Positions 1,022 through 23,519 of a stretch of DNA of 30,733 bases are shown here, piece by piece. The notes beneath the pieces were generated by a model. The model had not been told where the DNA came from. It searched no databases and worked only from the letters and a program-made list of their open reading frames with translations. The stretch lies in the NCBI GenBank assembly GCA_964387115.1, contig CAYLVN010000001.1:1-30733 (forward strand). The letters are read 5' to 3'. Position numbers and translations under genes: made by a program. The stretch comes from an uncultured Fibrobacter sp. Its GTDB lineage: Bacteria > Fibrobacterota > Chitinivibrionia > Chitinivibrionales > Chitinispirillaceae. Position 1 is the stretch's first letter. Each line of letters begins with the position of its first letter.

Positions 1022-2110
1022 TTACGGATATTGAACCAATGCACGAAGCAGCCTGTTTACCTGCCTGTCAATCTTATGACGCGAAGCATTCCTGAAAGCA
1101 CGCACACTCAGAGCTTTGAACTCTTCAGGACTATTACACAAATCAAATACTTTCTTTGCGTCCTGTTTCAGATCAACCCCGCCAATAAGAACACCGCTGT
1201 GAGATTCAGAAATGGTTTCACGGCTTGACGGGATATCAGTTGCAAATACGACTAATCCGTAACTCTGTGCCTCCAAAATCGCAAAAGATCGTCCGCCCTC
1301 GTATCTTGATGTAGATATGAGATAGGGGCATGTTTCATACCAGCGGCTGATTTTGTCAGGTGATTCCTTTTCGACAATAAAAAGCGAATCACCAAGTGAT
1401 GACAGCAGATTCTGCTTTGAATCAGGAATAGAACCGGTTCCGACAAGAAACAGTCTCGCATCAGGAAGATAAGAGAGGATATGTTCAAAGAGACCGATTC
1501 CGTATTCGATATTTTTCTTCCATGTAAAACTGCCTACAATCAGAAAACTGGGCGGTATCTCCTCCTGTGAAGCCCAGAAAGGAGCTTCGGGCAGGTTTAT
1601 ACCGTTTGGAACTACTCTGAGTTTTTTACGGGCAAAGGGGTGTTTACGGGATATCCATCTTGCCTCTTCAAGTGTACCGCAGATGCAGGAGGAACAAAGT
1701 GAAAGAGACAGTCTCAGCAGTGGAAACCGGATGATCCGGGATTTCCATGTGGTTCTGTTTGTCACCGCTGAGAGAGGGAGCCTCCGCTCAATCTGAAACA
1801 CCTTCTCTTCCCATCCGTGATTGTAAAGAACCACCTTTGTTTTTAATTTGAAAAGTTTTGAGATCAAAGCACAGAAAACGCCGTCAGTTGACCTGGCGAT
1901 AATCCTGTCGGGACGATCGAAAAAATTTAATAGAAAAAGAAGCCCCGTTCTCAGTGCAAAAAAAAGGTAGTTCTCTTCCCTGGGTGAACCTGCGTAGATA
2001 ATTTTTACCTTGTGCCCGGCTCTTTTTACACCTTCCGATAAAGTGTTGATAGAACGGTTTACTCCGCCTGCAGAGTTTTTATTGATGGATGCTATAAACC
2101 AGATTTTCAC
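1022..2110 (-). CDS. GT4-family (GT-B fold) glycosyltransferase
   Basis: Start re-assigned to GTG at 2110: AGGAG RBS upstream and a 4-nt GTGA overlap with the upstream stop. C-terminal STSRYEGGRSFAILEAQSYGLVVFATD motif; HGWEE and VVPNGI motifs. Confidence 0.85.
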   Translation of the reverse strand: MKIWFIASINKNSAGGVNRSINTLSEGVKRAGHKVKIIYAGSPREENYLFFALRTGLLFLLNFFDRPDRIIARSTDGVFCALISKLFKLKTKVVLYNHGWEEKVFQIERRLPLSAVTNRTTWKSRIIRFPLLRLSLSLCSSCICGTLEEARWISRKHPFARKKLRVVPNGINLPEAPFWASQEEIPPSFLIVGSFTWKKNIEYGIGLFEHILSYLPDARLFLVGTGSIPDSKQNLLSSLGDSLFIVEKESPDKISRWYETCPYLISTSRYEGGRSFAILEAQSYGLVVFATDIPSSRETISESHSGVLIGGVDLKQDAKKVFDLCNSPEEFKALSVRAFRNASRHKIDRQVNRLLRALVQYP

Positions 2111-3861
2111 AGCTTCTCCTGCGGCTCTCTTAAAAAGAAATCCCATGACAAAGGCTCGTGCGGAAGTGATTCGAGAAGTCTTTTTAAACTCCGGAAATTG
2201 TCCCGGGCCTCTACAGAGAGGTGAACGGTGAGGCACACAAAACATCCTTCTGTTTTCTCGATTACTCCTGATGATAAAATCGATTCTGCGCTTCCATACC
2301 AGGGATAAAATGAGGGGAAATACCATGTGCCTGCAACGGCTACAGGCCCTGTTACCCTGCCCGTAAAACGAGCCGTTTCTGGTCCACCGCATATAACAGA
2401 AAAGTGTTTTGACAATTGAACAATCTGTTCAAGGCCGATTGCATTGAATGGAGGTACTAGAATCCTGGGAACTGTTCCACCGGACCTTTCGATTTCCGAA
2501 AGTCTGGTCAGAAATTCAGGGATTCTGATCTGCAGAAGCTCACTGGGAAACGGTCCGTATTTTCCCTGATGAGAAAATCCGTGAAGTCCGACAACAGCTC
2601 CGCTTTCGCATAAGGAACTTAAAATTGAATCACCTTTATTGTCAATAAGATCATCGCCTTTTACTGCAGCTAAATAAGGAAATCCTTTCGATTTCATTAC
2701 ACCGCATAATCCTGAAACATGATCTCTGTTGTCAAAAAATACATCATCAACTCTTAAGAATATTCGTGATTTTACAGGTGAGCCTCCACAGGCGAGTTTC
2801 TTTATTCCAGAGCTGCAATCATATACGGGTTTACGGTTGAATTTAAACAGCAAAGATTTCAGTGGTGAGCCTGACAGCCTCATATCGTCAAGCACAAGAT
2901 TGTTTTTATCCCAGAGCCGTGCTGTTTTCTCCATGTCTGCATATCGGGAAATCAATCCCGATCCACAGGAAACCCAGGTTTTAAAGAAACCGGGTGCCAT
3001 AAGCATAGCGGTAATCTGTTCAATAATACAAGAAGCAGCAAGGGTTACTGTCTGAAAAGGGTGCCTGATAAGAGTAGAGATACGCCTGCGCCTGAAATCG
3101 TTTATTATGTTTCGAAACATAATCGAAAAATATGTTCCCCAGAATGTCGATGCCCTGCGGAAGAGATGATATCTGTCGGGGTGTTTACGATAAAAGTAAA
3201 ATTCTGCTTTGAGAAGCCCCCTGATTCTTTTTGGTGCGTTTTTCAAGTACCTGAGCAGATTAATTTTACGGGGAAGATGAGTAACAGAGATTCGGTTGCT
3301 AAAATAAATTTCTCCCCACATGAGAACTCTTGCGGCAAGTTCATGATCCTCACAGAAGGGTCCGAGAAATTCAAATTCCTGATCAAACCCTGACAATTGG
3401 TTCAATATCGATCTTCGCAGAATAAAATGACATGTGAGATACGCTTTTCCGTCGAGATTCTGAACCTCCCTGTCCCATACACCATTACCTGAAGCTTTAA
3501 CCTGCCCCTCAATTCCCGGAACAGACAAAGGCATTTCTTTAAGCAGTGGAACAAGAGATGAAAACCAGTTTTCGTTTATTCTTACATCATCATCCAGAAA
3601 AACTACCCATTCACCTTTACTGTTTGCGATACCGGTATTTCTCGCTACCGCCATCCCCCTGTTTCTTCCCTGATGAAAATAGCTGCATCTATGCTCCGCA
3701 CAGATCTTCTGGTTTGCAGATGCATCTTTTTGGCATGAACCATCATCTATAACGATAATCTCGGTATGCTGATCATTTCCAATCTGCTCTCTTAAGGCCT
3801 TAAGGCAGGATAAAAGGTAATCGGGTCTCTGATATGTCGGAATTACAATCGAAATGAACAT
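2107..3861 (-). CDS. GT2 glycosyltransferase fused to a C-terminal NodB/CE4-like (DUF2334-type) polysaccharide deacetylase-like domain
   Basis: N-terminus has ISIVIPTYQR, IIVIDDGS, NRGMAVARNTG, VVFLDDD (DxD) and GPFCEDHEL. C-terminus has FLRVDD, VGLHGFSH and LVPPFN. ATG 3861 chosen because GT2 homology starts there. Confidence 0.8.
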   Translation of the reverse strand: MFISIVIPTYQRPDYLLSCLKALREQIGNDQHTEIIVIDDGSCQKDASANQKICAEHRCSYFHQGRNRGMAVARNTGIANSKGEWVVFLDDDVRINENWFSSLVPLLKEMPLSVPGIEGQVKASGNGVWDREVQNLDGKAYLTCHFILRRSILNQLSGFDQEFEFLGPFCEDHELAARVLMWGEIYFSNRISVTHLPRKINLLRYLKNAPKRIRGLLKAEFYFYRKHPDRYHLFRRASTFWGTYFSIMFRNIINDFRRRRISTLIRHPFQTVTLAASCIIEQITAMLMAPGFFKTWVSCGSGLISRYADMEKTARLWDKNNLVLDDMRLSGSPLKSLLFKFNRKPVYDCSSGIKKLACGGSPVKSRIFLRVDDVFFDNRDHVSGLCGVMKSKGFPYLAAVKGDDLIDNKGDSILSSLCESGAVVGLHGFSHQGKYGPFPSELLQIRIPEFLTRLSEIERSGGTVPRILVPPFNAIGLEQIVQLSKHFSVICGGPETARFTGRVTGPVAVAGTWYFPSFYPWYGSAESILSSGVIEKTEGCFVCLTVHLSVEARDNFRSLKRLLESLPHEPLSWDFFLREPQEKL

Positions 3862-3867
3862 AGGTTG

Positions 3868-3876
3868 ATTATACCA
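3868..3876 (-). promoter_or_regulatory. putative extended -10 promoter (TGnTATAAT), 6 nt before the ATG of the GT2-deacetylase gene
   Basis: Minus strand reads attaTGgTATAATcaacctATG. No Shine-Dalgarno; TTATCA lies 18 nt upstream of the -10. Confidence 0.45.
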
Positions 3877-3971: not shown

Positions 3972-5039
3972 TCATCTGTTAATTAGTTTCTTATAGATCT
4001 CAATACACTTATCTCCAGAATCAATACTGATCATTCTGTATCTGCCAGCACCCATCCGTGATCTTTCTGCCCATAATGAATTATTCTCAATCAGGTCACT
4101 AATCCCCAGTGAAATACCCTCTACATGCATTGGATCGACAAATCGTGCTGACTCTGTACACGTTTCTTCTACGGAAGGGATCCTGGATGCCACAACGGGA
4201 CACCCGGCAACCATTGCTTCAAGTGGCGGTATTCCAAGCCCCTCATAAAGCGAACAGAAAATCAGTCCACTGCAATTATCAAGGTGATATTGATACCGCT
4301 CCATACCCGACTCAAATAAGACAGTTTCGGGCACATTTTCCAGCCCCTCTTCCTTCTTATCAACATCGCCAAGTATTAAAAGTTTGAATTGCGGATATTT
4401 TTCTCCAAGTTGCGAAAATGCCTTTACCACACGGGCACAATTCTTATGAACACTTCCTCCAAGCATCACAAAGTAAGGCTTGCGATCTGTATTACCTGTA
4501 TTTGTTCGTGAAACAGGCATGTACAATGTATGACACCTGTTTTTAACATCGGGAAATGCTTTAATAAAATCCAATCTTGCAGATTCTGAAATGCAGATAT
4601 AACTCTTTAAGGAGCCGGCTAAGATTTTCTGCATCCGCCAGTATCTGCTGCTCTTTACCGAACGCAGAAATGGTATGTCCCAGTATTCAACTCCCATATC
4701 GTATACAGTAGCCACTGAAGGACATGGATGTAAAAGACCCAGACCGATCTGTCTTTTGGGACCAAGGGCAACCCAGTAGTGGTAGAGATCAATTTTATGC
4801 CTTAAAATGATGAGCGGAATGGTAAAAAGATCTCTTTTCCAATCGCTTTGCCGGTAAGGAATCCATTGAGCTATTTTTTTCTGCAAAGAACACGGGATTT
4901 TTGATTTATCACCCCAACCAATAATTCTGTACTCCGGTTCCGTAAAACTGATGCTTCCGGATAATGCTTCTGTAAAACGTCCTACACCACGATTGCCGTA
5001 CCCGAATGAAAACAGCCGCAGATCCCAGAGTATATTCAT
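3972..5039 (-). CDS. GT4-family glycosyltransferase (mannosyltransferase-like subfamily)
   Basis: N-terminal GVGRF; ATVYDM; ICISESARLDF; SLYEGLGIPPLEAMVAGCPVVAS (EX7E). Confidence 0.88.
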   Translation of the reverse strand: MNILWDLRLFSFGYGNRGVGRFTEALSGSISFTEPEYRIIGWGDKSKIPCSLQKKIAQWIPYRQSDWKRDLFTIPLIILRHKIDLYHYWVALGPKRQIGLGLLHPCPSVATVYDMGVEYWDIPFLRSVKSSRYWRMQKILAGSLKSYICISESARLDFIKAFPDVKNRCHTLYMPVSRTNTGNTDRKPYFVMLGGSVHKNCARVVKAFSQLGEKYPQFKLLILGDVDKKEEGLENVPETVLFESGMERYQYHLDNCSGLIFCSLYEGLGIPPLEAMVAGCPVVASRIPSVEETCTESARFVDPMHVEGISLGISDLIENNSLWAERSRMGAGRYRMISIDSGDKCIEIYKKLINR

Positions 5040-6139
5040 TTTTCAGTGACTTTCCTGTAAATTGAAAACATCCTGGTGGCCATCGACTGGTAACTGTACC
5101 TATCAGCATAATTCTTTACATTATTAAGTAATGTTTCCCTGAAGGAGATATCGGACAAAAGACGGTTCAAGGCATCAGCTGCAGCCCCTGGTTCATGAGG
5201 TACAACAACTACAGGGGAATGCTCTGAACCTGCAATTTCCTCTGAAAGAGGAATCTTTGTTGCAATTACAGGTTTAAGCGCTCCTATCGCACGTGTCAAA
5301 CTTCCTGAAGAGGAACGGCTCGAGAAAAGTGCAAGATATATATCAATTTCTCTGAGAAGAACGGTCTGTTCCTCTTCTGTAATCCACCCTGTAATCGTAA
5401 ACCGGTCATTCCAGCCGTTATCATTGATCCTGTTTTTTATACTGTTTAAAAGATCCTGCTGCTCCCGACTTCTGATCCCGCCAGCCCATGTAAAGCGCCA
5501 GTCTTTATCGAGCTTCTTAAGAAAGGAAAAAAGAAGCTCATAATTGTACTGTGGATTTATAAAACCTGTTGACCCAAGGTGAAGTGGGCGCTGGGGTGCC
5601 CAGGAGAATTGAGGAAAATCTGCGGAAACCCTTACGGGATGTGAAAGCACTTCAATATTAAGATTTGCGTTTTCGGCTTGCAATATTTCTTTATGATACT
5701 GGTGATGAACCAGAATAAGATCTGCACCGAAGTTCATTTTCAGATGTTTTCTGAATGCCGTCTGAGACGGATGTTTGCGGTCGTAAATGATTCTTTTAAT
5801 CCCTTTAATTAAATCGTTTCCGGATATCTCACGACGGGGATATACTCCCGGAAAGTCTCTATAAACCTCATGAAGAGAGATGATTACCGGCTTTTTGATT
5901 TTAGATAAGATCTGCAGAAAATAATCATGCCCGTTTTTAATGAAAAATGTGGTTTCATACTGAATATGGACAACATCTGCATTCTGCATCAGATCAGAGG
6001 TTCTGGAAGAGTCGGAAAATAAACTGAGCGGATCAATAATCGAAACATCTGCATGCTTTCTTAAGGCATCGGTATAGTTTCGGGCGTAAATTGATATCCC
6101 GCAATTGTCAGTTTCCGGGAAGATCCATAGAGCTTTCAT
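5036..6139 (-). CDS. GT4-family glycosyltransferase with degenerate EX7E motif
   Basis: CGISIYARNY, DVVHIQYE, ISLHEV, GSTGFINPQYN, SGSLTRAIGALKPVIAT. ATGA overlap with the downstream gene. Confidence 0.78.
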   Translation of the reverse strand: MKALWIFPETDNCGISIYARNYTDALRKHADVSIIDPLSLFSDSSRTSDLMQNADVVHIQYETTFFIKNGHDYFLQILSKIKKPVIISLHEVYRDFPGVYPRREISGNDLIKGIKRIIYDRKHPSQTAFRKHLKMNFGADLILVHHQYHKEILQAENANLNIEVLSHPVRVSADFPQFSWAPQRPLHLGSTGFINPQYNYELLFSFLKKLDKDWRFTWAGGIRSREQQDLLNSIKNRINDNGWNDRFTITGWITEEEQTVLLREIDIYLALFSSRSSSGSLTRAIGALKPVIATKIPLSEEIAGSEHSPVVVVPHEPGAAADALNRLLSDISFRETLLNNVKNYADRYSYQSMATRMFSIYRKVTEK

Positions 6140-7948
6140 TTAAGGAGATTCCTGTGATTCGATAATTTGCTGTGGCAGTCCTGTTCTTTTCCCCTGAGTA
6201 AGGAATCTTACGAGTCCGCATGAAGCACCAAGAAGGCCGGCAATTACAGCCAGAATATTATGGCCTTTCCTGAAGGGTCTGCCTTTTTCCGGTACTTTTC
6301 TGGAAAGATATTCAAGACGATATTTCCAGAAGACAATCCATGATAATGATTTTTTAAGAGGGGCATATTTACAGGAAAAATAAGCTGTATTGGCAAAACT
6401 ATGGAAAAGAAATCTGTATCGTTTATCGGACCTGCATCCTCCGGCGTCTTTACGAAGGTGCTTTACCCTGGCCTCGTGACAATACCAGATTTGATAGTTG
6501 CTTTTTAACAGCCTGAATGCACAGTCTACATCTTCCCAGTGCGCATTATGTCTGAATCCTTTGTCAAATCCGCAAATATTTACAAGTGCGCTTCTTCTGA
6601 AAGACATATTTGCGCCCATGATACTGATAACATTGCGACTTTCAGACATGGAAAAGTTCTGATGAATCTCACCGTGGCGGACATCAAACCATGGATCGGA
6701 TTCGGGTGCTTCGGAGGCGAAAACAGGATCCTCAATGAAACCGGCAACAGCGCCTGTAGATTCCTGCCGGTAGCAGTTTCTGTGTTTGTCAAGTAATTCG
6801 CTTTCCGGCACTATATCATCATCAAGAAACAGTACAACAGGGTTATAGCCTGCCTTTAGAGCCGCATTGCGGGCATTGGGAAGATTCGGGGGCGAAGAAA
6901 AAAGAAGATGCACCCGTTCTGATAAAGGCACATCGGGCTTCTGATCGCCCTGCCATACAATATAGATGGTGTCATTGTAGTTGCATTGATCAAGTAGAGA
7001 TTGGACAATATTGTAAACTGAATCGGGTCTATTGAATGTAGGAATAATTATGTCGATAGAAAATGCGCTTTCTTGAAAAGAATCTTCTGTCTGGAAAGGT
7101 TTTTCTGCATAGGCAAAGCAGGAACCTCCACCCTTTATATCCAGTAACAGTTCAAACTTATTGATAGAGGCGTTCAGTAATCTGAGCATAAGACCAGTGA
7201 CAGGAAACTTTTTAATTCCTGTAAACAGCTCTGTTATGATATTTAAAAAATGAAAGCGGGCCTTCTTGAATGCGAGGCGGTATTTCTCCGGATACCCGGT
7301 GATCCACCCTGTCAAGCCGGCAGGGCTGAAGAATCGCCTCACTTTAAACCGTCTGCTGTAAAAGCTGTAAAGCTCTTCTGATGGTCGTATCGAATAATGA
7401 CCGTCAAGATCTGCGAGATAATCAAAACCGATTTTCCTGATAAGACTATTGTCAGGCCACCTTTTTTTGTAGTCACCGCATTCGCTGTGAAGAAAGAGTG
7501 CGGCACCTGGACGGCAAACCCTGAATATTTCATCCAGCGCCTTTTCCTGATCGCGAAGATGACCCAGGGCATCAATAGTGAAAAGAGAATCTATGATTCC
7601 ATGTTTGAACGGAAGCATATGTAGATCGGCACAAACAGGAAGAACTTTACCTTTTCCACTGCGGTATGAGGCCCATTTGAGCGCCTCAGGCGACCAGTCT
7701 ACAGCCAGAACCGTACAGGGACAACGGTCTATAAACCACCTGCTGTAGGCACCGCGGCCTGAGCCGAAATCAACCACTTTGTAAAAGGGGAAACACCTTG
7801 CAGCAAGGTCATCAACACCCTTGCGTTTCAGGGAAAGAAATCCGGCACACAGTCGCATCAGACCCGACCTGACGGAAACTGCACGTGTGTGCCACTGACC
7901 TGAAAGGAATTTTTTCCGGGAAAAAGAGCGCTCAGCTCTACTGGACAT
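6140..7948 (-). CDS. class I SAM-dependent methyltransferase fused to a GT2 glycosyltransferase
   Basis: VVDFGSGRG (SAM motif I), LAVDWS, CADLHMLPF and DALGHL; then IDIIIPTFNR, PNARNAAL, LFLDDD, MGANMSFRR and HWEDVDCAFRL. Confidence 0.82.
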   Translation of the reverse strand: MSSRAERSFSRKKFLSGQWHTRAVSVRSGLMRLCAGFLSLKRKGVDDLAARCFPFYKVVDFGSGRGAYSRWFIDRCPCTVLAVDWSPEALKWASYRSGKGKVLPVCADLHMLPFKHGIIDSLFTIDALGHLRDQEKALDEIFRVCRPGAALFLHSECGDYKKRWPDNSLIRKIGFDYLADLDGHYSIRPSEELYSFYSRRFKVRRFFSPAGLTGWITGYPEKYRLAFKKARFHFLNIITELFTGIKKFPVTGLMLRLLNASINKFELLLDIKGGGSCFAYAEKPFQTEDSFQESAFSIDIIIPTFNRPDSVYNIVQSLLDQCNYNDTIYIVWQGDQKPDVPLSERVHLLFSSPPNLPNARNAALKAGYNPVVLFLDDDIVPESELLDKHRNCYRQESTGAVAGFIEDPVFASEAPESDPWFDVRHGEIHQNFSMSESRNVISIMGANMSFRRSALVNICGFDKGFRHNAHWEDVDCAFRLLKSNYQIWYCHEARVKHLRKDAGGCRSDKRYRFLFHSFANTAYFSCKYAPLKKSLSWIVFWKYRLEYLSRKVPEKGRPFRKGHNILAVIAGLLGASCGLVRFLTQGKRTGLPQQIIESQESP

Positions 7949-7956
7949 TTAAACCG

Positions 7957-10119: not shown

Positions 10120-10121
10120 AG

Positions 10122-11015: not shown

Positions 11016-11055
11016 AGATCCTCATGCGAAAAAAGCCTGTAAACGGCAATGATTC

Positions 11056-12625: not shown

Positions 12626-12948
12626 ATGGCCTCTTCACTATCAACAACCTTGAAAATTTTATCCAGGTTGGTTCCGGTAAACATGTTTCTGATAAACCCC
12701 TGCGGATTCAGGAATATGAGCTCTCTGTTCTGTTCCCCCAAAAGTCGCCAGATATATACAAATGCCCCAAGTCCATGGCTGTCAATAAAAGTGGTCTTGC
12801 TTAGATCAACAACAACCTTCTGAGAGTCCCCTTTTCGCAGACCTTCAAGTTTTGAGGTGACTTTTCCGACGTTCTCACCTGTTATTTCTCCGGTAATCTC
12901 AAGCACCGGACTGGAATTGATCTTTTTTGACCTGATTTTGAGGCTCAT
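12622..12948 (-). CDS. STAS-domain anti-sigma-factor antagonist (SpoIIAA/RsbV-like)
   Basis: VVVDLSKTTFIDSHGLG with the phospho-acceptor Ser after Asp; TNLDKIF. ATGA overlaps with both neighbours. Confidence 0.9.
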   Translation of the reverse strand: MSLKIRSKKINSSPVLEITGEITGENVGKVTSKLEGLRKGDSQKVVVDLSKTTFIDSHGLGAFVYIWRLLGEQNRELIFLNPQGFIRNMFTGTNLDKIFKVVDSEEAI

Positions 12949-13457: not shown

Positions 13458-13475
13458 TGCCCTGTCTCCCGGTAA

Positions 13476-14108: not shown

Positions 14109-14177
14109 ATTTCCTCCTCACTTCAGATCACATTCAATTTATAAAAATTGTGTTATTACCCGATTTTATAAATACAA

Positions 14178-14207
14178 AGTCTACCATTTACCTGCCCGAA
14201 GTGTCAA
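14178..14207 (-). promoter_or_regulatory. putative internal sigma70 promoter for the motor + polysaccharide half of the operon
   Basis: Minus strand TTGACA-N18-TAGACT with a TGn extended -10, inside the 125-nt gap upstream of the ExbB-like gene. Confidence 0.55.
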
Positions 14208-14233
14208 TGTTTCAAAACCCTTTCCCCTTATTT

Positions 14234-14527
14234 CTACTCAATTATGGGTGAAAATGGCAGCGGATCAGCCAGATCCTCTTTAAAAGACCTCTCAAACTCT
14301 ATTTCTCTGTAAATAGTCCTCTCTTTTGGAAGAAAAATCATGACCTGCGGTTTTTCAATTTTCCCTTTGATCTTTACACCGACAGTAAAGGTGATTGTTC
14401 CGGGCTGCTCAATCCGGTATCCCTGCTCCTCTACACTGTCAGGCTCAGCTGCTTTTACCTGAGGTGCTGCCAGACAGGCTGCCGCTGAAGTGAGAACAAA
14501 TAAAAAGAAGGCCGCTTTAAATTTCAT
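14234..14527 (-). CDS. small exported protein, GltF/CglF-like
   Basis: Signal peptide; IKGKIEKPQVMIFLPK...ERSF resembles the small IEG-x-x-x-KP proteins that follow TPR genes in Glt-like clusters (recalled, not searched). ATGA overlap with the TPR gene. Confidence 0.6.
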   Translation of the reverse strand: MKFKAAFFLFVLTSAAACLAAPQVKAAEPDSVEEQGYRIEQPGTITFTVGVKIKGKIEKPQVMIFLPKERTIYREIEFERSFKEDLADPLPFSPIIE

Positions 14528-17517
14528 TGTTTAGCCTCTTTCTGTTCAGGGCTGAAGTTCTTGATAAAAGGAAACTTGTAAACATCCTCCGTTACCTGTT
14601 CTGAACTGAGCGGTTCTTCATAATCTGGAGGTTTGGGAACAGACACCGTTGTCCTTATTGACATTAAAAGCAGAGGAAAAATCCCGTTATCATCGTTGCT
14701 TCTGCTTTCTGCCTGAATCGCTATGACGTTTTTACCCTTTCTGATTTTTCCCAGAAGATCCCAGGATCGTGCTTCAAAGCCCATACTCGCAGAAGTATCG
14801 GACATCAGTAATTCTCCATTGATAAAAACTACTGCTGGTCCCTTTGAGGCAAAAAAGAAAAGTGCAGAATCGGGAGTTTCCGTTGTAGTAAACGTCCTCC
14901 TGAATGTGACTTTCTTTTCAGGATGGTAGGATTCTTTCACGGCAGGGTTCCCTGAACCCAGCCACATGGGAAGAGGTGTTTTACCGGGAAAACCATTGAT
15001 TCCAACACTGTCATTGTAAATGGCTTTCTGTGCCTTCTCCCAGGCAGTATCCGACAAATCAATTTTCTCCCAGTTTTCTACTGTATCGGATGTACAGCGC
15101 CACTGTGAGCCGGTACCGATTGAAGACTGAATCAGCTGGTTTTCTTCGGAACCGTATTCTTCGGGAAAATTCTGATAGAGTCTGACATAGGCATGAGTGA
15201 CATATTCCCCGGTGGCATACTTCTGTTTTGTAAAATCAAGTATGGTTTTATAGATCTCAAAAGCCTGTTCCTGAAATTTCAGTCCGATCTCTTCAAACCT
15301 TATCTTGTATTCTTCTTTTTCAGTCTCATTTACATTTCCGGGAAAAGGCGGGTTTTTAAAAGCTGTTTCGCATAAAAGGTCCATGCAACGGGCTTTGGTA
15401 AAGAGGAGCTGAGCGATTTTGTTTTGAGAATCCCTGACACTGGGGTCATCAATTTTGTAGGCTTCAGCAATCTTGGTTGTTTTAAGATAGTTTGTCAATG
15501 CCTGATCCTCATATCCTTCAATCTGCTTGAGAAGCTTGGTCTGGTAGACAAATCTTTCATATGGATCAAAATTTTCCGGTATCGGGGCGTCTCTGGCGAT
15601 GTTGACTACATCAGCGTAAGTTTCTCCAACTACAAAGGAGATTTTTGTTATGCTGGCGCTGGCCTTCTTGTAATATTCACTGAACTCCTGATAAGTGCTG
15701 CCAAGTTCAAGGCACTTCAGGAACAGATCAATTGACTTCTCCTGAAACGGGGCAATCTTCTGCAGCATCTGAAGCTTACGTGCGATAAGGGCAAAGCCCT
15801 CCAGCTGACCCTTCTCACCTGTGCTTCTTGCTATTTCAACAAGAGAAAGGTAGTTCTCCCCTGCCGCATAGGGAAGGTAAGTCAGTTTCTGACGTGACTG
15901 CAGGACATATTTGTCTTCGATTTTTTCCTTTATTCCAAGCTTTACATTCTGCTCATGATAATGTACTGCCTTATTTATGAAATAGTTTTCGATTGCCTGG
16001 GCTATTCCAAGCTCCAGCGCAATCCGCTCTTCGATAGATCCAAAAGAAGGTCGCTCCTGTTTGAATATGCCCATGGCGAAATCTTCGTACGCCTGACCGA
16101 TCTCAAAAACAGAGCGGGTTGTCCATTCTGAAATATTGAACTTGACTACGCGCGAATAGGCTTCAAGAGCCTTATCTAGAAGGTCAGATTTCTGCCCGAG
16201 CTGCTTTTTATAGAGACCCCTGGCACTGCTCAGTTGTATCTTGTTCATCTCGGTATGTCTGATTTCACCGATAGTAAACATTGCCTTTGCAGCGTAAAAC
16301 TGGTTCATTGAACTGGGGCTTTTTAATCTGGCGAAAGTGGAAAGTGCTTTTTCAAGCTGTAGAATTGCTTCACTCTCATTATTCTGCATATAATAGGCAA
16401 TTCCGGTCATACAAAGTGCCTGAACAACCCTGTTTTCATCATTGCCGAATTTCTCTGTAAACAGCCGGCTTACACGTCCGACACTTTCCCAGTCTTTTAT
16501 CTTTCCGTAAATTTCTCCTGCCCTGAAAAGAACATCCGCTGCATCTTCAGACTGAGGAAAAAGCCGCGCCATTTTTTCAAACGTCGCTCCAGCTTCCTTG
16601 AGCTTGTCAGCATTTTCAAAACTGAATGCGGCATTATAAAGTGAGACAGATGCGAGTTCTGACTTAGGATAGCCGGCAGTAACCTTTAAATAGGATTCTG
16701 CAGCAAGATCCCACTGAAGGAGTTTCTCATAGCTCTTGGCGATTCTGAACTGAGCCTTGGGAAGAAGCTGTGAGGAAGAATATTTCTGCAGCAATCTCTG
16801 AAACACCAGAATCGCATGTGACCACTCAGCCTGCTTTTCGTAGCTTAACCCGGCATTGAACAGAGATATGTCTGCGATTTTGGCATCCGAGTACTCCAGA
16901 GAGATCCTTTCATACTGCTCAGCTGCATCCTTGAAACGACTTTCCGCCTCATACTTTTCTGCCATCCGGAACATCGATTCGGCAATTCTTGTCAGAGCTT
17001 CCTGTTTGTCGGCTCCATCAGCTGCTACATTACTGAGCTTTTTATACCACTCCTGTGCCTTATCAAAGTTTTTCTCTTCGTAGAAAGCCTGAGCTACCAT
17101 CTTGGTTGCTTCAAGTTCATTTGAAGTACCCGGATATTTATTTATTATCTCCATGTAAACATTACGACTCTGCTCAAAGAGGCGGTTGTTGTAAAGCATA
17201 GAGGCCTTGATTGTGTATACCTCGGCTGTTTTGGGTGTATTAGGGTTAACACTGATATAGTTGTCACATGCTCTGATCATGAGCTCCGATGCCGGAGACA
17301 GCCCTCCGGGAATCGACTGAACTTTCTCAGTACCAGTTTCTTTTTTTATTTTTGAACTGTCAATCACAGCCTGCGACACAGAGTCTGCAGCCTTCCTGTA
17401 GTCGGGTGTGTTGTTTCTGATCAATTTGCTGCCATTGTTTGCACAGCCGGCAAGCAAAAGAGCTGAAAACAAACTCAACATACCCTTGAACGGGAAGATG
17501 TTTACTCGATGAAACAT
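14524..17517 (-). CDS. large TPR lipoprotein (GltD/GltE-like) with a C-terminal galactose-binding-like jelly-roll domain
   Basis: Lipobox LLAGC; many BamD/CpoB-like TPRs (SLFNAGLSYE, AQFRIAKSYE, SLYNAAFSFE). C-terminal WRCT..NWEKIDLSDTAWEKA, FRRTF, VFINGE and GKNVIAI. Confidence 0.8.
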   Translation of the reverse strand: MFHRVNIFPFKGMLSLFSALLLAGCANNGSKLIRNNTPDYRKAADSVSQAVIDSSKIKKETGTEKVQSIPGGLSPASELMIRACDNYISVNPNTPKTAEVYTIKASMLYNNRLFEQSRNVYMEIINKYPGTSNELEATKMVAQAFYEEKNFDKAQEWYKKLSNVAADGADKQEALTRIAESMFRMAEKYEAESRFKDAAEQYERISLEYSDAKIADISLFNAGLSYEKQAEWSHAILVFQRLLQKYSSSQLLPKAQFRIAKSYEKLLQWDLAAESYLKVTAGYPKSELASVSLYNAAFSFENADKLKEAGATFEKMARLFPQSEDAADVLFRAGEIYGKIKDWESVGRVSRLFTEKFGNDENRVVQALCMTGIAYYMQNNESEAILQLEKALSTFARLKSPSSMNQFYAAKAMFTIGEIRHTEMNKIQLSSARGLYKKQLGQKSDLLDKALEAYSRVVKFNISEWTTRSVFEIGQAYEDFAMGIFKQERPSFGSIEERIALELGIAQAIENYFINKAVHYHEQNVKLGIKEKIEDKYVLQSRQKLTYLPYAAGENYLSLVEIARSTGEKGQLEGFALIARKLQMLQKIAPFQEKSIDLFLKCLELGSTYQEFSEYYKKASASITKISFVVGETYADVVNIARDAPIPENFDPYERFVYQTKLLKQIEGYEDQALTNYLKTTKIAEAYKIDDPSVRDSQNKIAQLLFTKARCMDLLCETAFKNPPFPGNVNETEKEEYKIRFEEIGLKFQEQAFEIYKTILDFTKQKYATGEYVTHAYVRLYQNFPEEYGSEENQLIQSSIGTGSQWRCTSDTVENWEKIDLSDTAWEKAQKAIYNDSVGINGFPGKTPLPMWLGSGNPAVKESYHPEKKVTFRRTFTTTETPDSALFFFASKGPAVVFINGELLMSDTSASMGFEARSWDLLGKIRKGKNVIAIQAESRSNDDNGIFPLLLMSIRTTVSVPKPPDYEEPLSSEQVTEDVYKFPFIKNFSPEQKEAKQ

Positions 17518-17549: not shown

Positions 17550-20500
17550 TTATTTTGTGCTGCTTTCCTGCTTGAGCAGGTTCTGGGATGCCACAATTGC
17601 ATTCCATGCAGCAGTTTCCCTGTATTTGCTGTCGGGATATCGTTTTGATACAGCCATATATTCTTCTGCTGCCTGGAGGTAATTACCAAGAGAAAACTCG
17701 ATTTCCGCCAGGTTATAATGACACTCGTTGGCCATCGGCGATGCCGGGTATACAGTTATGAATTCTCTGTAAGAATCAAGAGAGGATAGATACAGTGTAG
17801 TATCGTTTTTCTGAAGGGCTAACTGATGATATCCGATCGCTCCATCATAAAGCAACCTGCAGGCTACACTGTCGGCCTGCTCCCGGACATCTTTCTTCTG
17901 AGACCTGGCCCAGGAGCTGTTACGGTTGTATTTTTTATAATAATCGATTTTTGTCTGATTCGTTTCCTCAATTGTTGACTCACGCTGCAATAACGCAAGC
18001 ATCTCCGCTTCGGCCATAGGATTTTTGGAATAATCGGGGAATGAATTCAAAAGCGTTCTGTAGGTCTTCAATGCCATATCAGTGCGCCCCTGGTCCCTGT
18101 ACACAGATCCAAGTCTGTGAAGAATCTGGCAGCCCTTATCATAATCACCGAGTTTTTTGATAAACTTAAGAGCCCGCTGCAGACCACCGTCACCCACCCC
18201 ATCGGTTTCACTGAAGCTGATTGCTATGTAGTCCATCGATTCCTTTTCAAGCAGAGGCTTTCTGTTGGGATTGGATTCTCCAAGACTCACCAGAGCAAGA
18301 AATGAGCTTATGGCCTTCTCCGGGTTTGACAGACGGTACTGTGCCCAGGCCAGTTTGTAAAGTGCCTCATCAAACCATTCACTTTCCGGATATCTCATCG
18401 CCGCCTGATAGCATTTGATTGCTCTGTCCAGTTCTCCGCGGTCAAAATTGTATTCACCACAGTACATCCAGGCCTGAGGAGTATGGTTGCTGTTTGGGTA
18501 AAGTGTGGCAAGCTGTTCCATATAGTATAAAGCGCTGTCCAGCATGGTGATATCATTATAGCACCATGCAAGGCTGTAGTAGGCCGGCGGGATGAATTTG
18601 GATTTCTGATATCCATTTATGACAGCCTTGAATTGTTCCATGCTTTTCTGGTGGTTAAGGCGGGGAGGAACCGGGATAGCTGGAGGCTCAAGAAGTTTAC
18701 CTTGCCGGTATTGTGATAAACTCAGCTCATAAGAAGTCATCTCTTTTTCATAGACCTCAAAATCGGCAGAATATTTCTTGTTCTCCTGAGTATAATAGAG
18801 CTCACCGAGCTGGTATTTGAAATAAGATTTATCTGCACTGTCTGAAACCGTATTTACAAGAGCCGGGAGTTCCTCTGCCAGCTTCTGGAAATGCCGCCTT
18901 GAAATGCTGTCTTCTTTAACCAGAAGAGAATCTATGCGTGCTGAACAGATCTGTTTTTCCTTTTTAAGGGAAAATATTTGAGCCGAATCCGTCGACTCTG
19001 AAATAAGTTCGTCAAGCTGGATATCCCTTTTTTTGACAAGTGATTTTTCCCAGTCTATATAATCCCTCTCCCAGCGAAACTTATCGATCGATGCCACAGA
19101 TGAGAATACCAGTGAGTTATCGACAATATCTTTAATTCGTTTGCGGTTGTGTCTTGCATTTGACAGCATTTTTCCGTATTTATTCTGTTGTTCGCCTCTG
19201 GCCTCGATTATTACGGAATCAAGGTAATGAAGAAGCCTCTCGCGTTTCTGTGAGAAACTTGTCTCCTGGAAAGATCCGGTCTTGTAGTGACGGATCAGAA
19301 GGTTGCAAATTTCGTTTACCCGGTCGTAAGTCTGGGATATTGATTTGTAATCCGGCACCTGCTCCTGGTGGATCCTGTCCAGAAGAGATGTCAGCTCACG
19401 GCGGGCATATGCGTATTTACTTGCATTAGCACGGTTCTTCTCTATAGCTTCTTTTTTGGAAATAGTTTCCAGCATCTGCAGTAGACGCTGTTCCTCATTT
19501 TTGAGGTATACAGCTTTTTTCCAGTCATAACCTGCTTTGTAAAGATTTCTTCTGGCAAGAATAAGAATACCTTCTGCACCAAGCGGCGATTCAGTAGACT
19601 GGCTTACAAGTTTACTGAGAGCCGTTTCTGCTTTATCATCCTGACCAAGACGAATATAGCACCAGAGTATTCCAAACATCGCACGGTCAAAGCTATTCTG
19701 TTCATTGAGAATATCATAGAACAGGGAAAGAGCTTTTTTGTAATTGCCAACCTCATAATAGAGCTGGGCAACGGCAAGATGTATTTCGCCATAAGCAAGT
19801 TCGTCCTCAGGAGAGTTACGGTTGTATTTTAAAGTACTCTCCATTATGGATAATGCGGTTGCTTTGTCATCGATCTGGAGATATGAACGTGCAAGTGCAT
19901 GCATCACATGCAGCGAATAAGAGGCATTTTTATCGACCTGAGATGCCAGATTCAGGAAATTTCCATCTTTGCGTAGTGCAAGCCCGCTTTCAAGCACCAT
20001 CCATATCAGAAGATTCTTTTTTCTGCCCGCAAAAGATGTAAACTTCAGAGTTTGGCCTTCAGCCCAGAGTTTTTCATAGTCTTTGAGAGCATAGAGGCTC
20101 TGAAATTTGTAAAGAATTCCGGAGAGGGAATCTTTTTCAGGAAACCTGGTGATTGTGGAAAGCACTTTATCGTATTCGCCTTCCTGAAACTGAACCTTGG
20201 CAAGCAAGTTATAAAGCTCATCAACTGCAACACCTGATTTGAAACGTCCCAGGAGGAGAAAAAGTTTCTTTTTGGCAAGATTTCTCTTATCTTCCTGGAT
20301 GTATTTGTAAATTCTATCCTTCTCAATCCGGTACATATTTGCCAGATCAGCTTTGCTTCCTTTTGATGCCAGGTAATCTTTGATGTGGTTTAGCTTATCA
20401 TAGTACTGCTCAGACTGAAATCCCAGATTGGCCCTGAGTATTTTAAAGAATTCTTCTTCCATAGGACCATTACTGCTTGCCTTTTTGTATTTCAACCCGA

Positions 20501-21029
20501 GTTCTTTCATCACAAAATCAAGGAGTGAATCGTTTGCATTCCATAAACTGTCAATCTGGTGTTTTATAGAGAGCATCTCGCTGATTCGCTTCATGTCTCC
20601 TTTTTCCAGAACCTCAAACATGCTCTCTACAGGCTCCCCGACAACCATCTCGCGAAGTATAGCCATAGCATCATTGAGCGGCGGTTTTAAAGCATCGATC
20701 TGTTCAAGAAGCGAAGCGTGAGTCTTCTCCAGAACCAGAGATCTGCTGTTAAGCTGCTCCATGCTGCCTGTCTTGAATCCTGTCAGCATCGAAGGGAAAA
20801 GCCCGATATCACGTATCTCAGCCAGAACATCAGATACAGCGGAGAGTTCCCGGGAGAGCATCTCGATTTTGTTCCATTCAGAACCAAACCGCAGTATCAG
20901 ATTTTCCCTGATCTGCCAGACATCTGTTTCTTCTTTGGGTTTACCAAATAGACAGTCCGGGCACAAAGCAAGAGCTACTCCTGCTATAAGCGCGCCTCTT
21001 TTAAGAAGATTAAAGACTGTCTTTTTCAT
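17550..21029 (-). CDS. large exported TPR protein (GltC/GltD-like)
   Basis: Signal peptide; TPRs including RAMFGILWCY, AYYSLAWCY, EALYKLAWAQYRL, EKESMDYIAISFSE and HYNLAEIEF. Confidence 0.8.
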   Translation of the reverse strand: MKKTVFNLLKRGALIAGVALALCPDCLFGKPKEETDVWQIRENLILRFGSEWNKIEMLSRELSAVSDVLAEIRDIGLFPSMLTGFKTGSMEQLNSRSLVLEKTHASLLEQIDALKPPLNDAMAILREMVVGEPVESMFEVLEKGDMKRISEMLSIKHQIDSLWNANDSLLDFVMKELGLKYKKASSNGPMEEEFFKILRANLGFQSEQYYDKLNHIKDYLASKGSKADLANMYRIEKDRIYKYIQEDKRNLAKKKLFLLLGRFKSGVAVDELYNLLAKVQFQEGEYDKVLSTITRFPEKDSLSGILYKFQSLYALKDYEKLWAEGQTLKFTSFAGRKKNLLIWMVLESGLALRKDGNFLNLASQVDKNASYSLHVMHALARSYLQIDDKATALSIMESTLKYNRNSPEDELAYGEIHLAVAQLYYEVGNYKKALSLFYDILNEQNSFDRAMFGILWCYIRLGQDDKAETALSKLVSQSTESPLGAEGILILARRNLYKAGYDWKKAVYLKNEEQRLLQMLETISKKEAIEKNRANASKYAYARRELTSLLDRIHQEQVPDYKSISQTYDRVNEICNLLIRHYKTGSFQETSFSQKRERLLHYLDSVIIEARGEQQNKYGKMLSNARHNRKRIKDIVDNSLVFSSVASIDKFRWERDYIDWEKSLVKKRDIQLDELISESTDSAQIFSLKKEKQICSARIDSLLVKEDSISRRHFQKLAEELPALVNTVSDSADKSYFKYQLGELYYTQENKKYSADFEVYEKEMTSYELSLSQYRQGKLLEPPAIPVPPRLNHQKSMEQFKAVINGYQKSKFIPPAYYSLAWCYNDITMLDSALYYMEQLATLYPNSNHTPQAWMYCGEYNFDRGELDRAIKCYQAAMRYPESEWFDEALYKLAWAQYRLSNPEKAISSFLALVSLGESNPNRKPLLEKESMDYIAISFSETDGVGDGGLQRALKFIKKLGDYDKGCQILHRLGSVYRDQGRTDMALKTYRTLLNSFPDYSKNPMAEAEMLALLQRESTIEETNQTKIDYYKKYNRNSSWARSQKKDVREQADSVACRLLYDGAIGYHQLALQKNDTTLYLSSLDSYREFITVYPASPMANECHYNLAEIEFSLGNYLQAAEEYMAVSKRYPDSKYRETAAWNAIVASQNLLKQESSTK

Positions 21030-21032
21030 TTT

Positions 21033-22169
21033 TTAAAATTCCAGAGATTCTTTTCTCTGTGATTTCCCCTCAGTACCCGGTTCCTGAAGGTGGTTGTCGA
21101 TATCCATCCTATTATCCTTTTTCCGGTTTTTCAGGATAAGATATGTTCTCATCATCTCAGCACTGGTTTTTTTGTAGCGTAGAGGAAAAGAGATTGAACC
21201 TGCCATTTTCCATTTTGTGAACCACGGGTCGAAAGGATCGGTTACATTATATTTCTCTCTTTCAATCGGATATTCCTGATTACCATAACCCATGCTTGAA
21301 TACTTGTTTCTGCTTAGAAGAACAGGTACAGATAAAGAAATAACAAGCCCGTTATCGTAACGAAGATTACCTCCCAGGGTGAGGTACATGGGATTTTCCG
21401 GAAAGAAAACAGCAAATCTCTTTCTTCCGTTATCCTGGGTCAGAACAAGCGGTTTGAACAGATTGTTGAAGGCTTCAAGAGTATAGATCGCAAAGAAATC
21501 GAAACCGTATCTGCTGTAAACAGCACCAGCATCAAGAAGATACTGAAAACAGTCCGCCCGGTCGGATCTGAAAGGCATGCGTAAACCTGCATTTGCTATT
21601 GCACGTAAAGGAATTTTGCTGATTCTGGGAAGCAGATCCAGCTCGTAAAGGAATTTGATATCTGCGGTCAATCCCTTTACCACGAATCCTTCCGGCATAA
21701 AACCATAATATCCCCCAAGAGTCGGATTTGTCTCAAAAAACTGGTAATTGAATTTAAAGTCAAGCCCGAAGCCGTTCAGACGAAGATCCTCGTTATTAGG
21801 GGTTGTTAATTTTAGTCCCGCTGCGATGTTCCCGAATTTAAAACGGTAGGAGAGGACTCTTGATTCCACATACGCTGTTCCGAAATCACCGAAACCAACC
21901 TGTGCTTTAATTTCCGGAAATCCGTAGAGATTCGAGAACCATTTCTGGGAACTCAGCACTGAAGAATCATTTTTGTCAGGAACATCGTCCCACACAAACC
22001 CTACTGCTGTCAGGGTAACCCAGATATTGCCGGGTCCGCTGGTATTTGAATTCTGAAGTTTGTAGAAAGACTCACCCCTGTTGCGCTTCTGGTTGCTCTG
22101 AGAAAAAGCCGACGGCACAGTAGAAATCAGGATAAGGACCGATGCACTGATAATCAGATTTAGTTTCAT
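21033..22169 (-). CDS. putative outer-membrane beta-barrel protein with a C-terminal tail (paralog 2)
   Basis: Signal peptide; many alternating hydrophobic/aromatic strands (GLDFKFNYQF, ADIKFLYEL, ANAGLRM, LGGNLRY). Shares terminal motifs with the upstream gene. Confidence 0.55.
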   Translation of the reverse strand: MKLNLIISASVLILISTVPSAFSQSNQKRNRGESFYKLQNSNTSGPGNIWVTLTAVGFVWDDVPDKNDSSVLSSQKWFSNLYGFPEIKAQVGFGDFGTAYVESRVLSYRFKFGNIAAGLKLTTPNNEDLRLNGFGLDFKFNYQFFETNPTLGGYYGFMPEGFVVKGLTADIKFLYELDLLPRISKIPLRAIANAGLRMPFRSDRADCFQYLLDAGAVYSRYGFDFFAIYTLEAFNNLFKPLVLTQDNGRKRFAVFFPENPMYLTLGGNLRYDNGLVISLSVPVLLSRNKYSSMGYGNQEYPIEREKYNVTDPFDPWFTKWKMAGSISFPLRYKKTSAEMMRTYLILKNRKKDNRMDIDNHLQEPGTEGKSQRKESLEF

Positions 22170-23248
22170 TCCAGATCCTCCAGCAGACTCTCTATCTCCT
22201 GCATCTTCTGATGTATTTCTTCCCGTTTCTGCAGTAGCTCTCTTTGCTGGGCTGCATCAGGCAGATCAGTCTTGAATTCGTCAAAGGTGATCTCGAAATC
22301 AGGCCGTATCGATTTTTGCTGCTCGATAATTTTGGTCACAAAGTCTTTTTTCTTTTCCCTTTCTTTCTCGACAAAAATCATCGTACGGATCGCTTCCGAA
22401 TTTGTTTCTCTGTAAAGGAGAGGAACCTCCACTGCACATGAGAGCCGCATGTAATTTGCGGGAAGAGGCCTGTCGTGCTTTACTCTCTGGAATATCAGGG
22501 TTCTAAGTGAACCCAGTAAACTTATTTTCTGAAAAAGCCTGTATCTGATACCCGGTTCAATCCAGAAAGTCTGCTGTTTGAAACCCTTGTCGCCTGAAGG
22601 CAGCAACAGGTTCGGTTTTTCTCTGTACAACCCCAGCCCTGCATCAAGAATTATACTGTTCTGATACAACTTCCATTCGAGCCCGATTTTAAATGAAAGC
22701 TGGTTGTACAGGTAAAGCATATCCGGATTATCGGACATGCTGAATGAGAAATAATTTTTCAATGGGAAATGACTTAACAGTGCAATCCAGTCCAGATCAA
22801 TAACAGCAGAGGGTCTGAAGAAAGGATTGTAATCAGGTCGTGTTTCTTTGGCTGAACCTATGAGAGTATCCTTGGTGGTTGACAAATAAAGGTCGCCATT
22901 AATACACATTCCGAAAAATCTCAGGTTATTATTCTCGGGTGTAGTGATCTGAAGCCTGCACTCTATTGCCCCCAGACCATGAAAGTTTGTAAAGGATGCT
23001 CTGCCGCTGAGCTGCATGATGTCTGAAATCCCTATTGCCACATTAAGACCTGGATCAGCTCTGAGACCAGTTTCTCCATATCCTCCCGACAGGGATATGC
23101 CCGCAGTGATATTGCCGTTACCGGCAACATTTGATGGACTGATATTGAATGTGCCCTCATTTCTGCCTCTCTTTACAGTCTGACCGTAAGACATCAGACT
23201 GCAGAAAAGAAGTAGAAGCATCGGGTAAATTGCAAATCTGCACATCAT
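22166..23248 (-). CDS. putative outer-membrane beta-barrel protein with a C-terminal coiled-coil tail (paralog 1)
   Basis: Signal peptide; amphipathic strands (GISLSGGYG, KIGLEWKL, LDAGLGLY, IEPGIRYRL, LSCAVEV). Charged helical C-terminus. Confidence 0.55.
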   Translation of the reverse strand: MMCRFAIYPMLLLLFCSLMSYGQTVKRGRNEGTFNISPSNVAGNGNITAGISLSGGYGETGLRADPGLNVAIGISDIMQLSGRASFTNFHGLGAIECRLQITTPENNNLRFFGMCINGDLYLSTTKDTLIGSAKETRPDYNPFFRPSAVIDLDWIALLSHFPLKNYFSFSMSDNPDMLYLYNQLSFKIGLEWKLYQNSIILDAGLGLYREKPNLLLPSGDKGFKQQTFWIEPGIRYRLFQKISLLGSLRTLIFQRVKHDRPLPANYMRLSCAVEVPLLYRETNSEAIRTMIFVEKEREKKKDFVTKIIEQQKSIRPDFEITFDEFKTDLPDAAQQRELLQKREEIHQKMQEIESLLEDLE

Positions 23249-23252
23249 CAGG

Positions 23253-23519
23253 TTACCTGCTGTTCTGTTCCTGTAAATTCCTGGATCCGGTAATTACTAC
23301 AGGAAGCAGAGTTGTTTTGTTGAATCTCTTCCCGCTTTTTCTCAGTTGTTTTTTAAATTCTCTAAGCGATTCAAGATCCTCCAGCGTAAAGAGGCGCCAG
23401 CCGTTGTAGTTGCGCTGGTTTGAGATATTCAGCTGGGGCTCTTCCAGCCACCGCTTAAGAGTCGACAATGAGATGCGGAGTTTTTTGGCCATTTGTCCGC
23501 TGGTCAGGTACTGTGACAT
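23253..23519 (-). CDS. small stand-alone MerR-type helix-turn-helix DNA-binding protein (88 aa)
   Basis: YLTSGQMAKKLRISLSTLKRW...RNYNGWRLFTLEDL. ATG 23519 has an AAGGAG RBS; no effector domain. Confidence 0.85.
   Translation of the reverse strand: MSQYLTSGQMAKKLRISLSTLKRWLEEPQLNISNQRNYNGWRLFTLEDLESLREFKKQLRKSGKRFNKTTLLPVVITGSRNLQEQNSR

Follow-up and report, generated by a model that had tools for sequence, protein, structure and literature searches.

A predicted proton-driven motor and a polysaccharide exporter in one gene array

The window analyzed here is an entire 30.7-kb contig (CAYLVN010000001.1; 30,733 nt) of a 3.76-Mb metagenome-assembled genome (MAG) of anaerobic digester origin, from an uncultured member of the Chitinispirillaceae (Fibrobacterota). 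It carries an array of 18 genes that probably encodes a single envelope-spanning system of two modules, powered by the proton motive force (PMF) and dedicated to one surface polysaccharide. Module A comprises a MerR-type regulator, two outer membrane barrels predicted to have 12 strands each, two giant tetratricopeptide repeat (TPR) proteins, and a small secreted protein. Module B comprises an ExbB-type and two unlike ExbD-type subunits, which would form a proton stator, a small cytoplasmic STAS protein, a GltG-type transducer, the export pair Wza-Wzc, and five glycosyltransferase genes. Across the phylum, the two modules occur in nearly the same set of genomes, and in split arrays the motor remains linked to Wza-Wzc.

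The 18 open reading frames (ORFs) all occupy the minus strand, within positions 1022 to 23546, and the coordinates below refer to this strand unless a plus sign is given. Strand switches delimit the block: a convergent diaminopimelate dehydrogenase gene (DAPDH; 3-854, +) lies at one end and a divergent gene for an HtrA-type protease (23857-25368, +) at the other, while the GC content is uniform over the block (0.40 to 0.46). The junctions measure -4 (five times), -11, 0, 2, 3, 4, 8, 18, 32, and 40 nt, and there are two larger gaps. One of these, 125 nt, separates the gene for the small secreted protein from exbB. The other lies between the second GT4 glycosyltransferase gene and the following GT2 gene; its length is 110 nt if the latter begins at the ATG at 3861, the preferred start because it fits the beginning of the GT2 domain, and 65 nt if it begins at a TTG. 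A sequence-only reading of this DNA had described 18 co-oriented, tightly packed genes, a description that the ORF list and the junction lengths bear out. Its domain calls were reproduced, by Pfam and NCBIfam profile searches of the 18 products and the flanking genes and, for the barrels, by structural modeling and comparison, with the exception of the "GltF-like" label for the 97-aa secreted protein; no family matched this protein, and the label reflects its position only.

The array is maintained across the phylum

We surveyed relatives at two levels. Within the order, transducer orthologues were found in 27 of 40 relatives, representing 9 families, and their loci were fetched. In 26 of the 27 loci, the transducer gene is followed by wza and wzc and preceded by the genes from the helix-turn-helix (HTH) regulator on, as far as the contigs reach, with protein identities ranging from 33% to 98%. 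Named Chitinivibrionales MAGs carry the same array, in which the five glycosyltransferase genes are largely conserved. A Chitinispirillum MAG (L072) is among the carriers of the locus. At the phylum level, we examined 151 Fibrobacterota genomes with a completeness of 90% or more. Of these, 54 have the Wza orthologue, always in one copy, and in 51 of the 54 it lies directly beside a GltG-type gene, as judged from coordinates and fetched loci. Even in the most distant family, where the neighboring transducer is only 22 to 30% identical, it still passes the AgmX/PglI model NF033768 at 68.6 bits. The sequence-only reading had proposed that motor, scaffold, and polysaccharide exporter are genetically fused and had named motor-wza adjacency in relatives as a point to check; the 18-gene array and its conserved adjacency at both levels support the proposal.

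The arrangement is broken in an informative way in two families (f13 and f15), where unrelated housekeeping genes precede exbB. In these split arrays, ExbB-ExbD-ExbD-GltG-like-Wza-Wzc remain together, and the block HTH-barrel-barrel-TPR-TPR-small protein is intact elsewhere: the modules are 353 kb apart in the complete genome G070 and on different contigs in G045. The break point therefore corresponds to the gap between the small protein gene and exbB, which in the window is the 125-nt gap with a promoter-like site. This pattern of splitting, with the motor left beside Wza-Wzc, favors a close tie between the two.

The barrels follow Wza even where they are not linked to it. Barrel B was found in 55 of the 151 genomes, namely, the 54 with Wza and one more (G107), and this strict co-occurrence of module A with Wza suggests that the scaffold is needed too. 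Five genomes of 94 to 100% completeness have neither barrel B nor an orthologue of the GltG-type transducer or of Wza; such joint absences fall in several separate genera and families, implying more than one loss event. These co-occurrence counts are counts of genomes rather than of loss events on a species tree.

In a tree of the transducers, the unlinked paralogues form a clade of their own (100/100 support), and the linked transducers cluster by taxonomic family. Two unlinked orthologues nest among the linked ones, as expected for secondary rearrangement. Because its branches are long, its deep joins weak, and its root a midpoint, the tree alone is not proof that the linkage arose only once.

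RNA libraries and candidate promoters

The locus is present in four metatranscriptome runs, all from anaerobic digesters. Assembled contigs from three of these runs bridge the motor-wza junction (11016-11055), covering positions 5775-15904, 10777-15536, and 10911-12088 of the window; the longest, 10,130 nt, has a glycosyltransferase gene at one end and the gene for the TPR lipoprotein at the other. We looked for a terminator-like site in the 40-nt gap upstream of wza and saw none. Transcription through this junction, on which the proposal of a fused locus had been made to depend, is supported by these observations. The RNA depth is uneven, declining in two runs as the 3' glycosyltransferase genes are approached.

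Upstream of the HTH gene lies a candidate operon promoter (23691-23718), a perfect σ70-type -35/-10 pair with TTGACA, a 16-nt spacer, and TATAAT. In all four runs, the RNA contigs covering the HTH gene end at 23626 to 23675, ~10 to 60 nt downstream of the start predicted from this pair (near 23684). A boundary just past the predicted start fits RNA better than contaminating DNA. A second promoter-like site (14178-14207; TTGACA, an 18-nt spacer, and TAGACT with an upstream TG) lies at the boundary between modules A and B, inside the 125-nt gap, and would give an internal start near 14170.

The stator and its TonB-like transducer

Among the stator genes, PF01618 was matched once and PF02472 twice, corresponding to one ExbB-type and two ExbD-type products. 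The proton-channel subunit of the ExbB/TolQ/AglR type (13476-14108; 210 aa) matches PF01618 at 95 bits, and its best NCBIfam names, TolQ and ExbB, are both far below their equivalog cutoffs. The two ExbD/TolR-type subunits, both matching PF02472, differ at the conserved acidic position of the transmembrane segment: subunit 1 (12945-13457; 170 aa) has Asn there, whereas subunit 2 (12107-12625; 172 aa) retains the Asp. Between their genes, with a 4-nt overlap on each side, sits the gene for a STAS protein of the anti-sigma-antagonist type (12622-12948; 108 aa; PF01740, 61 bits; TIGR00377, 60 bits against a cutoff of 53), which keeps the DSHG phosphorylation site motif. STAS was detected in most loci with module B; it went undetected in loci L025, L030, L034, L035, L081, and L085 and in those of family f15.

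The transducer (11056-12117; 353 aa) is a GltG-type, TonB-like protein with a single transmembrane helix (residues 40 to 58), a TonB_C match, and an AgmX/PglI C-terminal domain (NF033768; 96 bits against a cutoff of 40). It matches the GltG model NF033760 with an E value of 5.7e-27 over model positions 340 to 648 of 650, which represent the transmembrane and periplasmic part. Lacking the N-terminal cytoplasmic half, it scores far below the full-length equivalog cutoff of that model (650 bits); only ~40 cytoplasmic residues are present, without an FHA domain. A search for homologues returned orthologues only, annotated as "energy transducer TonB" or "AgmX/PglI C-terminal domain-containing protein," and those with names came from MAGs of Chitinivibrionales or other Fibrobacterota. 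One of them, a GltG-like protein that is 96% identical, belongs to a MAG deposited as Fibrobacter sp. (isolate AS06rmzACSIP_199).

Pfam and NCBIfam searches of the 18 genes found no TolB, Pal/OmpA, Plug, or TonB_dep_Rec domains, and scores against the TolQ and TolR models fell far short of the equivalog cutoffs. We rejected an ordinary TonB uptake or Tol-Pal system on this gene content together with the AgmX/PglI-type transducer. The sequence-only reading, for which a grouping of the motor genes with such systems would have counted against the proposal, is supported here; an ordinary set is encoded elsewhere in the genome, on contig C235.

A probable outer membrane and periplasmic scaffold

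Module A begins with the MerR-type HTH protein (23253-23546; PF13411, 30.4 bits against a cutoff of 21.6), whose gene keeps this first position across the phylum. It is 97 aa long when read from the TTG at 23546; the ATG at 23519 is the likelier start. The next two genes encode barrel A (22166-23248; 360 aa) and barrel B (21033-22169; 378 aa), which are paralogous (hhalign probability of 99.7% over 285 columns). An AlphaFold2 (AF2) model of barrel A, built on 21 orthologues, has 12 strands followed by two long C-terminal helices (pLDDT of 78); among solved structures, it most resembles FapF, NanC, and other 12-stranded outer membrane barrels. For barrel B, the Atlas matches are barrels of the Phenol_MetA_deg and OmpA types; one of its structural neighbors in the Atlas is a 275-aa Myxococcota cluster, a lead only toward GltA/GltB. 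Neither barrel, nor the 97-aa secreted protein, had any family match in Pfam or NCBIfam. We also considered whether the barrels could be 18-stranded porins of the Wzp/GfcD type serving a short outer membrane polysaccharide export (OPX) protein. We rejected this idea on the strength of the 12-strand model and Wza's own C-terminal hydrophobic helix.

Downstream are the genes for two giant TPR proteins, neither of which matched a Glt-named model in NCBIfam. The first (17550-21029; 1,159 aa) matches many TPR families, with YbgF- or BamD-like units, and has a signal peptide and a possible lipobox. The second (14524-17517; 997 aa) is a TPR lipoprotein with the lipobox LAGC and a C-terminal galactose-binding-like jelly roll at about residues 790 to 965. 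The AF2 model of residues 770 to 997 is a beta-sandwich with a pLDDT of 88. All of the 50 top fold matches in the Protein Data Bank (PDB) are glycosidases, nearly all of glycoside hydrolase family 2 (GH2); the matches span ~130 to 250 columns, consistent with the N-terminal sugar-binding domain, and an Atlas features search agrees. The jelly roll is not a mark specific to the Wza-linked paralogue, since a TPR paralogue with the same domain is encoded on contig C73. The module ends with the small secreted protein (14234-14527; 97 aa), which has a signal peptide and a conserved position.

The export and glycosyltransferase genes

The OPX protein Wza (10122-11015; 297 aa) has a Poly_export domain and two SLBB domains and aligns to the Escherichia coli Wza structures 2J58 and 2W8I up to domain 3. 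It lacks a lipobox and ends in a hydrophobic helix of ~28 residues, so that it could span the outer membrane alone. Wzc (7957-10119; 720 aa), a polysaccharide copolymerase of the PCP-2a class with a tyrosine kinase (BY-kinase) domain, matches Wzz, GNVR, and TIGR01007 (189 bits). The kinase is intact, with a Walker A motif, and 9 of the last 30 residues are Tyr.

The five remaining genes were assigned from domain matches. They encode a fusion of a methyltransferase with a GT2 glycosyltransferase (6140-7948; 602 aa), two GT4 glycosyltransferases (5036-6139, 367 aa; 3972-5039, 355 aa), a GT2 glycosyltransferase with a long C-terminal extension (2107-3861), and, as the last gene, another GT4 glycosyltransferase (1022-2110). 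The GTG at 2110 gives a GTGA overlap with the preceding stop, which makes 362 aa rather than 456 aa the most likely length of the last product.

Related gene sets in this and other genomes

The MAG (G000) encodes five AgmX/PglI-type proteins and other motor gene sets. One of these, a paralogous ExbB-ExbD-ExbD-GltG-like set on contig C156, has SecA after it, and contig C235 (L104) carries the ordinary ExbB-ExbD-ExbD-TonB set. Further along C235 is a receptor-type gene of unusual architecture, in which an N-terminal TonB_C domain precedes CarboxypepD_reg and Plug. Other Wza-like and Wzc-like matches in the MAG lie on contigs without a motor match.

A second AgmX/PglI-type TonB-like gene (332 aa) is found on contig C274 of the MAG (L102:1269-5170), 2 to 3 nt upstream of the gene for a WbaP-type priming phosphoglycosyl transferase. 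The same pair occurs in a genome of the same genus (G003, L107:2964-8682), where a gene with a weak Wzi-like match (29.9 bits; cutoff, 30.1) comes next after the priming transferase gene. Two genes upstream of the C274-type AgmX/PglI gene is a gene for a fusion of a PP2C (SpoIIE) phosphatase with an RsbW-type kinase. Such a locus could supply the priming enzyme missing from the main array, as well as partner-switching enzymes for its STAS protein. Conservation of the C274-type paralogue extends over the genus and to one further family, and no copy was found in G011 or G006 at an E value of 1e-30. Genome G006, which is without the orthologous motor-Wza system, has on contig C17 an 842-aa Wza-like ORF and a paralogous AgmX-type gene ~10 kb apart (20733-21437 and 31941-32735); these may represent another motor-OPX pairing.

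A proposed mechanism and its alternatives

From gene linkage and co-occurrence, we infer that the locus uses the PMF to extrude, spread, or anchor a glycan. In this mechanism, proton flow via ExbB/ExbD would power conformational work in the transducer, whose periplasmic AgmX/PglI domain would engage the TPR and barrel scaffold, the Wza-Wzc translocon, or both. The work might then help to pull out the polymer leaving via Wza, to spread it, or to fix it on the cell surface. The model, by analogy, is the Myxococcus AglRQS-Nfs machine, which handles the Wza-exported Exo spore coat polymer. The GH2-N-like galactose-binding fold on the TPR lipoprotein, together with the outer membrane helix of Wza and the intact Wzc kinase, links the array to glycan handling.

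Several observations weigh against this interpretation, the support for which is comparative genomics throughout. No Wzx flippase, Wzy polymerase, or priming transferase is encoded among the 18 genes, although Wzx-type flippases and priming transferases (Bac_transf) are encoded on other contigs of the same genome, and the gene next after wzc in the distant genome G070 is of the Wzx type. Wza-Wzc does not adjoin the motor in three genomes (G036 and G043, where Wza-Wzc lies elsewhere, and G136), and related genomes are not independent samples. A scan of genome collections beyond the phylum found core complexes without wza alongside in a KSB1 MAG and an unclassified MAG, four gammaproteobacterial contigs being too short to judge. 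On contig C73, the jelly-roll TPR paralogue is present with no wza-like match. ExbB and ExbD are 35 to 44% identical to the ordinary TonB set on C235, so that an "Agl" identity is not separable by percent identity. Finally, the RNA runs consist of assembled contigs in which DNA carryover is possible, and a contig spanning two genes does not prove a single transcript.

The similarity to the TonB set would also be expected if two independent systems merely shared a neighborhood or a regulator, a motor for Tol-like maintenance or TonB-type transport standing beside an ordinary exopolysaccharide or capsule operon. The generic ExbB and ExbD, with best names far below cutoff, the YbgF/CpoB-like TPR units, and the promoter-like site before exbB are compatible with this explanation. 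However, the neighborhood is kept across the phylum down to 22 to 30% transducer identity, co-occurrence with module A is near perfect, and the parts are lost together; moreover, the locus has no TolB, Pal, or TonB-dependent receptor, and its transducer is of the AgmX/PglI type. We therefore regard independent systems as improbable. Still less probable is a gliding or surface translocation machine, in which cells would travel on chitin or cellulose by means of a Glt-like complex, with the polymer from Wza-Wzc as their slime or adhesive. The parts list is indeed of the Glt type, and these organisms degrade insoluble polymers and attach to their substrate (PMC4814513, PMC4704652). Yet the GltG-like protein has only its ~40 cytoplasmic residues and no FHA domain, no GltH, I, J, K, CglB, AglZ, or MglA-type genes are present in the locus, the core complex is, in the judgment of Luciano et al. 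(PMC3169522), not enough for motility, and members of the class are flagellated (PMC4704652).

An alternative closer to the preferred one is energized export of a TonB-like kind, in which the motor and the GltG-like protein gate or power the Wza-Wzc translocon itself rather than acting on polymer outside, and the TPR/barrel module is accessory, for example, in anchoring. Split arrays keep the motor and transducer with Wza-Wzc and not with the TPR/barrel module, the transducer-wza gap is just 40 nt without a terminator-like site, and Wza's own outer membrane helix makes the barrels unnecessary as a conduit for polymer. On the other hand, a full-text search found no report of Wza-Wzc needing the PMF or a TonB-like protein, and we know of no such system. 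Module A accompanies Wza in 54 of 54 genomes even when unlinked, which argues that it is essential rather than accessory, and the homologous region of GltG is predicted to bind the TPR protein GltD (PMC11761067). On balance, gating of the translocon alone appears unlikely to us, and we favor a two-module system in which the scaffold also takes part, whether the transducer acts on the translocon or, by way of the scaffold, on the polymer as it emerges.

Significance of the linkage

Our analysis ties one paralogue of the core complex to Wza-Wzc in three ways: they share an operon, they co-occur, and the motor is retained with Wza-Wzc where the array breaks. We add the counts of the phylum survey, the two-module split, the co-occurrence of barrel and Wza, the folds, and the RNA data. 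Wza-Wzc export is usually held to need no energy at the outer membrane; if our interpretation is true, an energized step is added to it, and the origin of the Nfs/Exo partnership of Myxococcus is explained. The core complex has been described as a conserved machine older than gliding, with a function unexplained since 2011 (PMC3169522, PMC3858216). Linkage across a phylum suggests, without proof, a job for this ancestral core, PMF-powered handling of exported polysaccharide. It is conceivable, albeit rather doubtful, that the Fibrobacterota possess an unrecognized class of polysaccharide secretion in which a PMF stator, by way of a GltG-type TonB-like arm, mechanically drives or gates Wza-Wzc, and that this was the ancestral job of the Glt/Nfs core, from which the gliding and spore coat machines were later derived. 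For chitin and cellulose degraders of digesters and sediments, surface glycans probably matter for attachment.

Other elements of the contig

Outside the array, positions 26375-26972 hold a tandem array with a 196-nt period (3.1 copies; 75% matches) in a low-GC noncoding stretch, with no match in Rfam. Near the contig end (30202-30274, minus strand) is a match to Rfam Intron_gpII, the catalytic domains V and VI of a group II intron, at 52.3 bits against a gathering score of 40.

Relation to known machines

We searched the literature for a motor-OPX link and for envelope systems of the Chitinivibrionia and found no prior description. With ExbB-ExbD-TonB and Tol-Pal systems, the array shares the stator families PF01618 and PF02472, the TonB_C fold, and YbgF-like TPR units; it differs from them in the lack of a TonB-dependent receptor, TolB, and Pal and in the AgmX/PglI-type C-terminal domain of its transducer. 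The resemblance to group 1 Wza-Wzc systems, such as E. coli K30 (Wza, 2J58), lies in an OPX protein with Poly_export, SLBB, and a C-terminal hydrophobic helix, a PCP-2a protein with a BY-kinase and a Tyr-rich tail, and glycosyltransferases nearby. The operon described here, in contrast, is without Wzx, Wzy, Wzb, and a priming transferase, its Wza is without a lipobox, and wza directly follows a PMF motor and a TonB-like gene, an arrangement for which we know of no counterpart in characterized Wza-Wzc systems. The Agl-Glt gliding machine has parts that couple it to the cytoskeleton and the substratum, and these set it apart: FHA, GltH, GltI, GltJ, GltK, CglB, AglZ, and MglA were all absent from the 18 genes and the flanking genes.

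The closest functional parallel is with the AglRQS-Nfs-Exo machinery of Myxococcus xanthus. Both have one TolQ/ExbB-type and two TolR/ExbD-type subunits, a TonB-like transducer of the GltG/NfsG type, and paired paralogous barrels beside TPR proteins, a likeness of arrangement, to which the structural lead from barrel B to the Myxococcota cluster adds the one hint of homology to NfsA/NfsB or GltA/GltB. The partner polymer in Myxococcus is likewise exported by a Wza-type protein (ExoA) and a Wzc-type protein, and cytoskeletal coupling parts are lacking. To our knowledge, Nfs has no STAS gene within the stator genes, no MerR-type first gene, no C-terminal helices on the barrels, and no jelly roll on a TPR lipoprotein. 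In M. xanthus, AglRQS proton conductance is required to assemble the Wza-exported Exo coat via Nfs (PMC3858216), and GltA/GltB and NfsA/NfsB are paralogous barrel pairs encoded beside a TPR protein, GltC in the case of GltA/GltB (PMC4488436). The Myxococcus motor, nfs, and exo genes occupy three loci, and the motor is shared with gliding, whereas here all lie in one 18-gene array from another phylum, with no sporulation involved, and divided arrays keep motor and Wza-Wzc together.

The Glt core complex (aglR, aglQ, aglS, gltC, gltD, gltE, and gltG) was described in Gammaproteobacteria, Geobacter, and Fibrobacter as having an unknown function; neither barrels nor genes for polysaccharide export are named there as part of the cluster, and the word "polysaccharide" is absent from the text (PMC3169522). 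Like the core complex, our array gathers ExbB, two ExbD, a GltG-type protein, large TPR proteins, and an extra small gene in one cluster; the occurrence of several copies per genome is also shared, as illustrated by the five AgmX-type proteins and the other motor gene sets of this MAG. Our array differs in that one paralogue is tied to Wza-Wzc and glycosyltransferases across the phylum.

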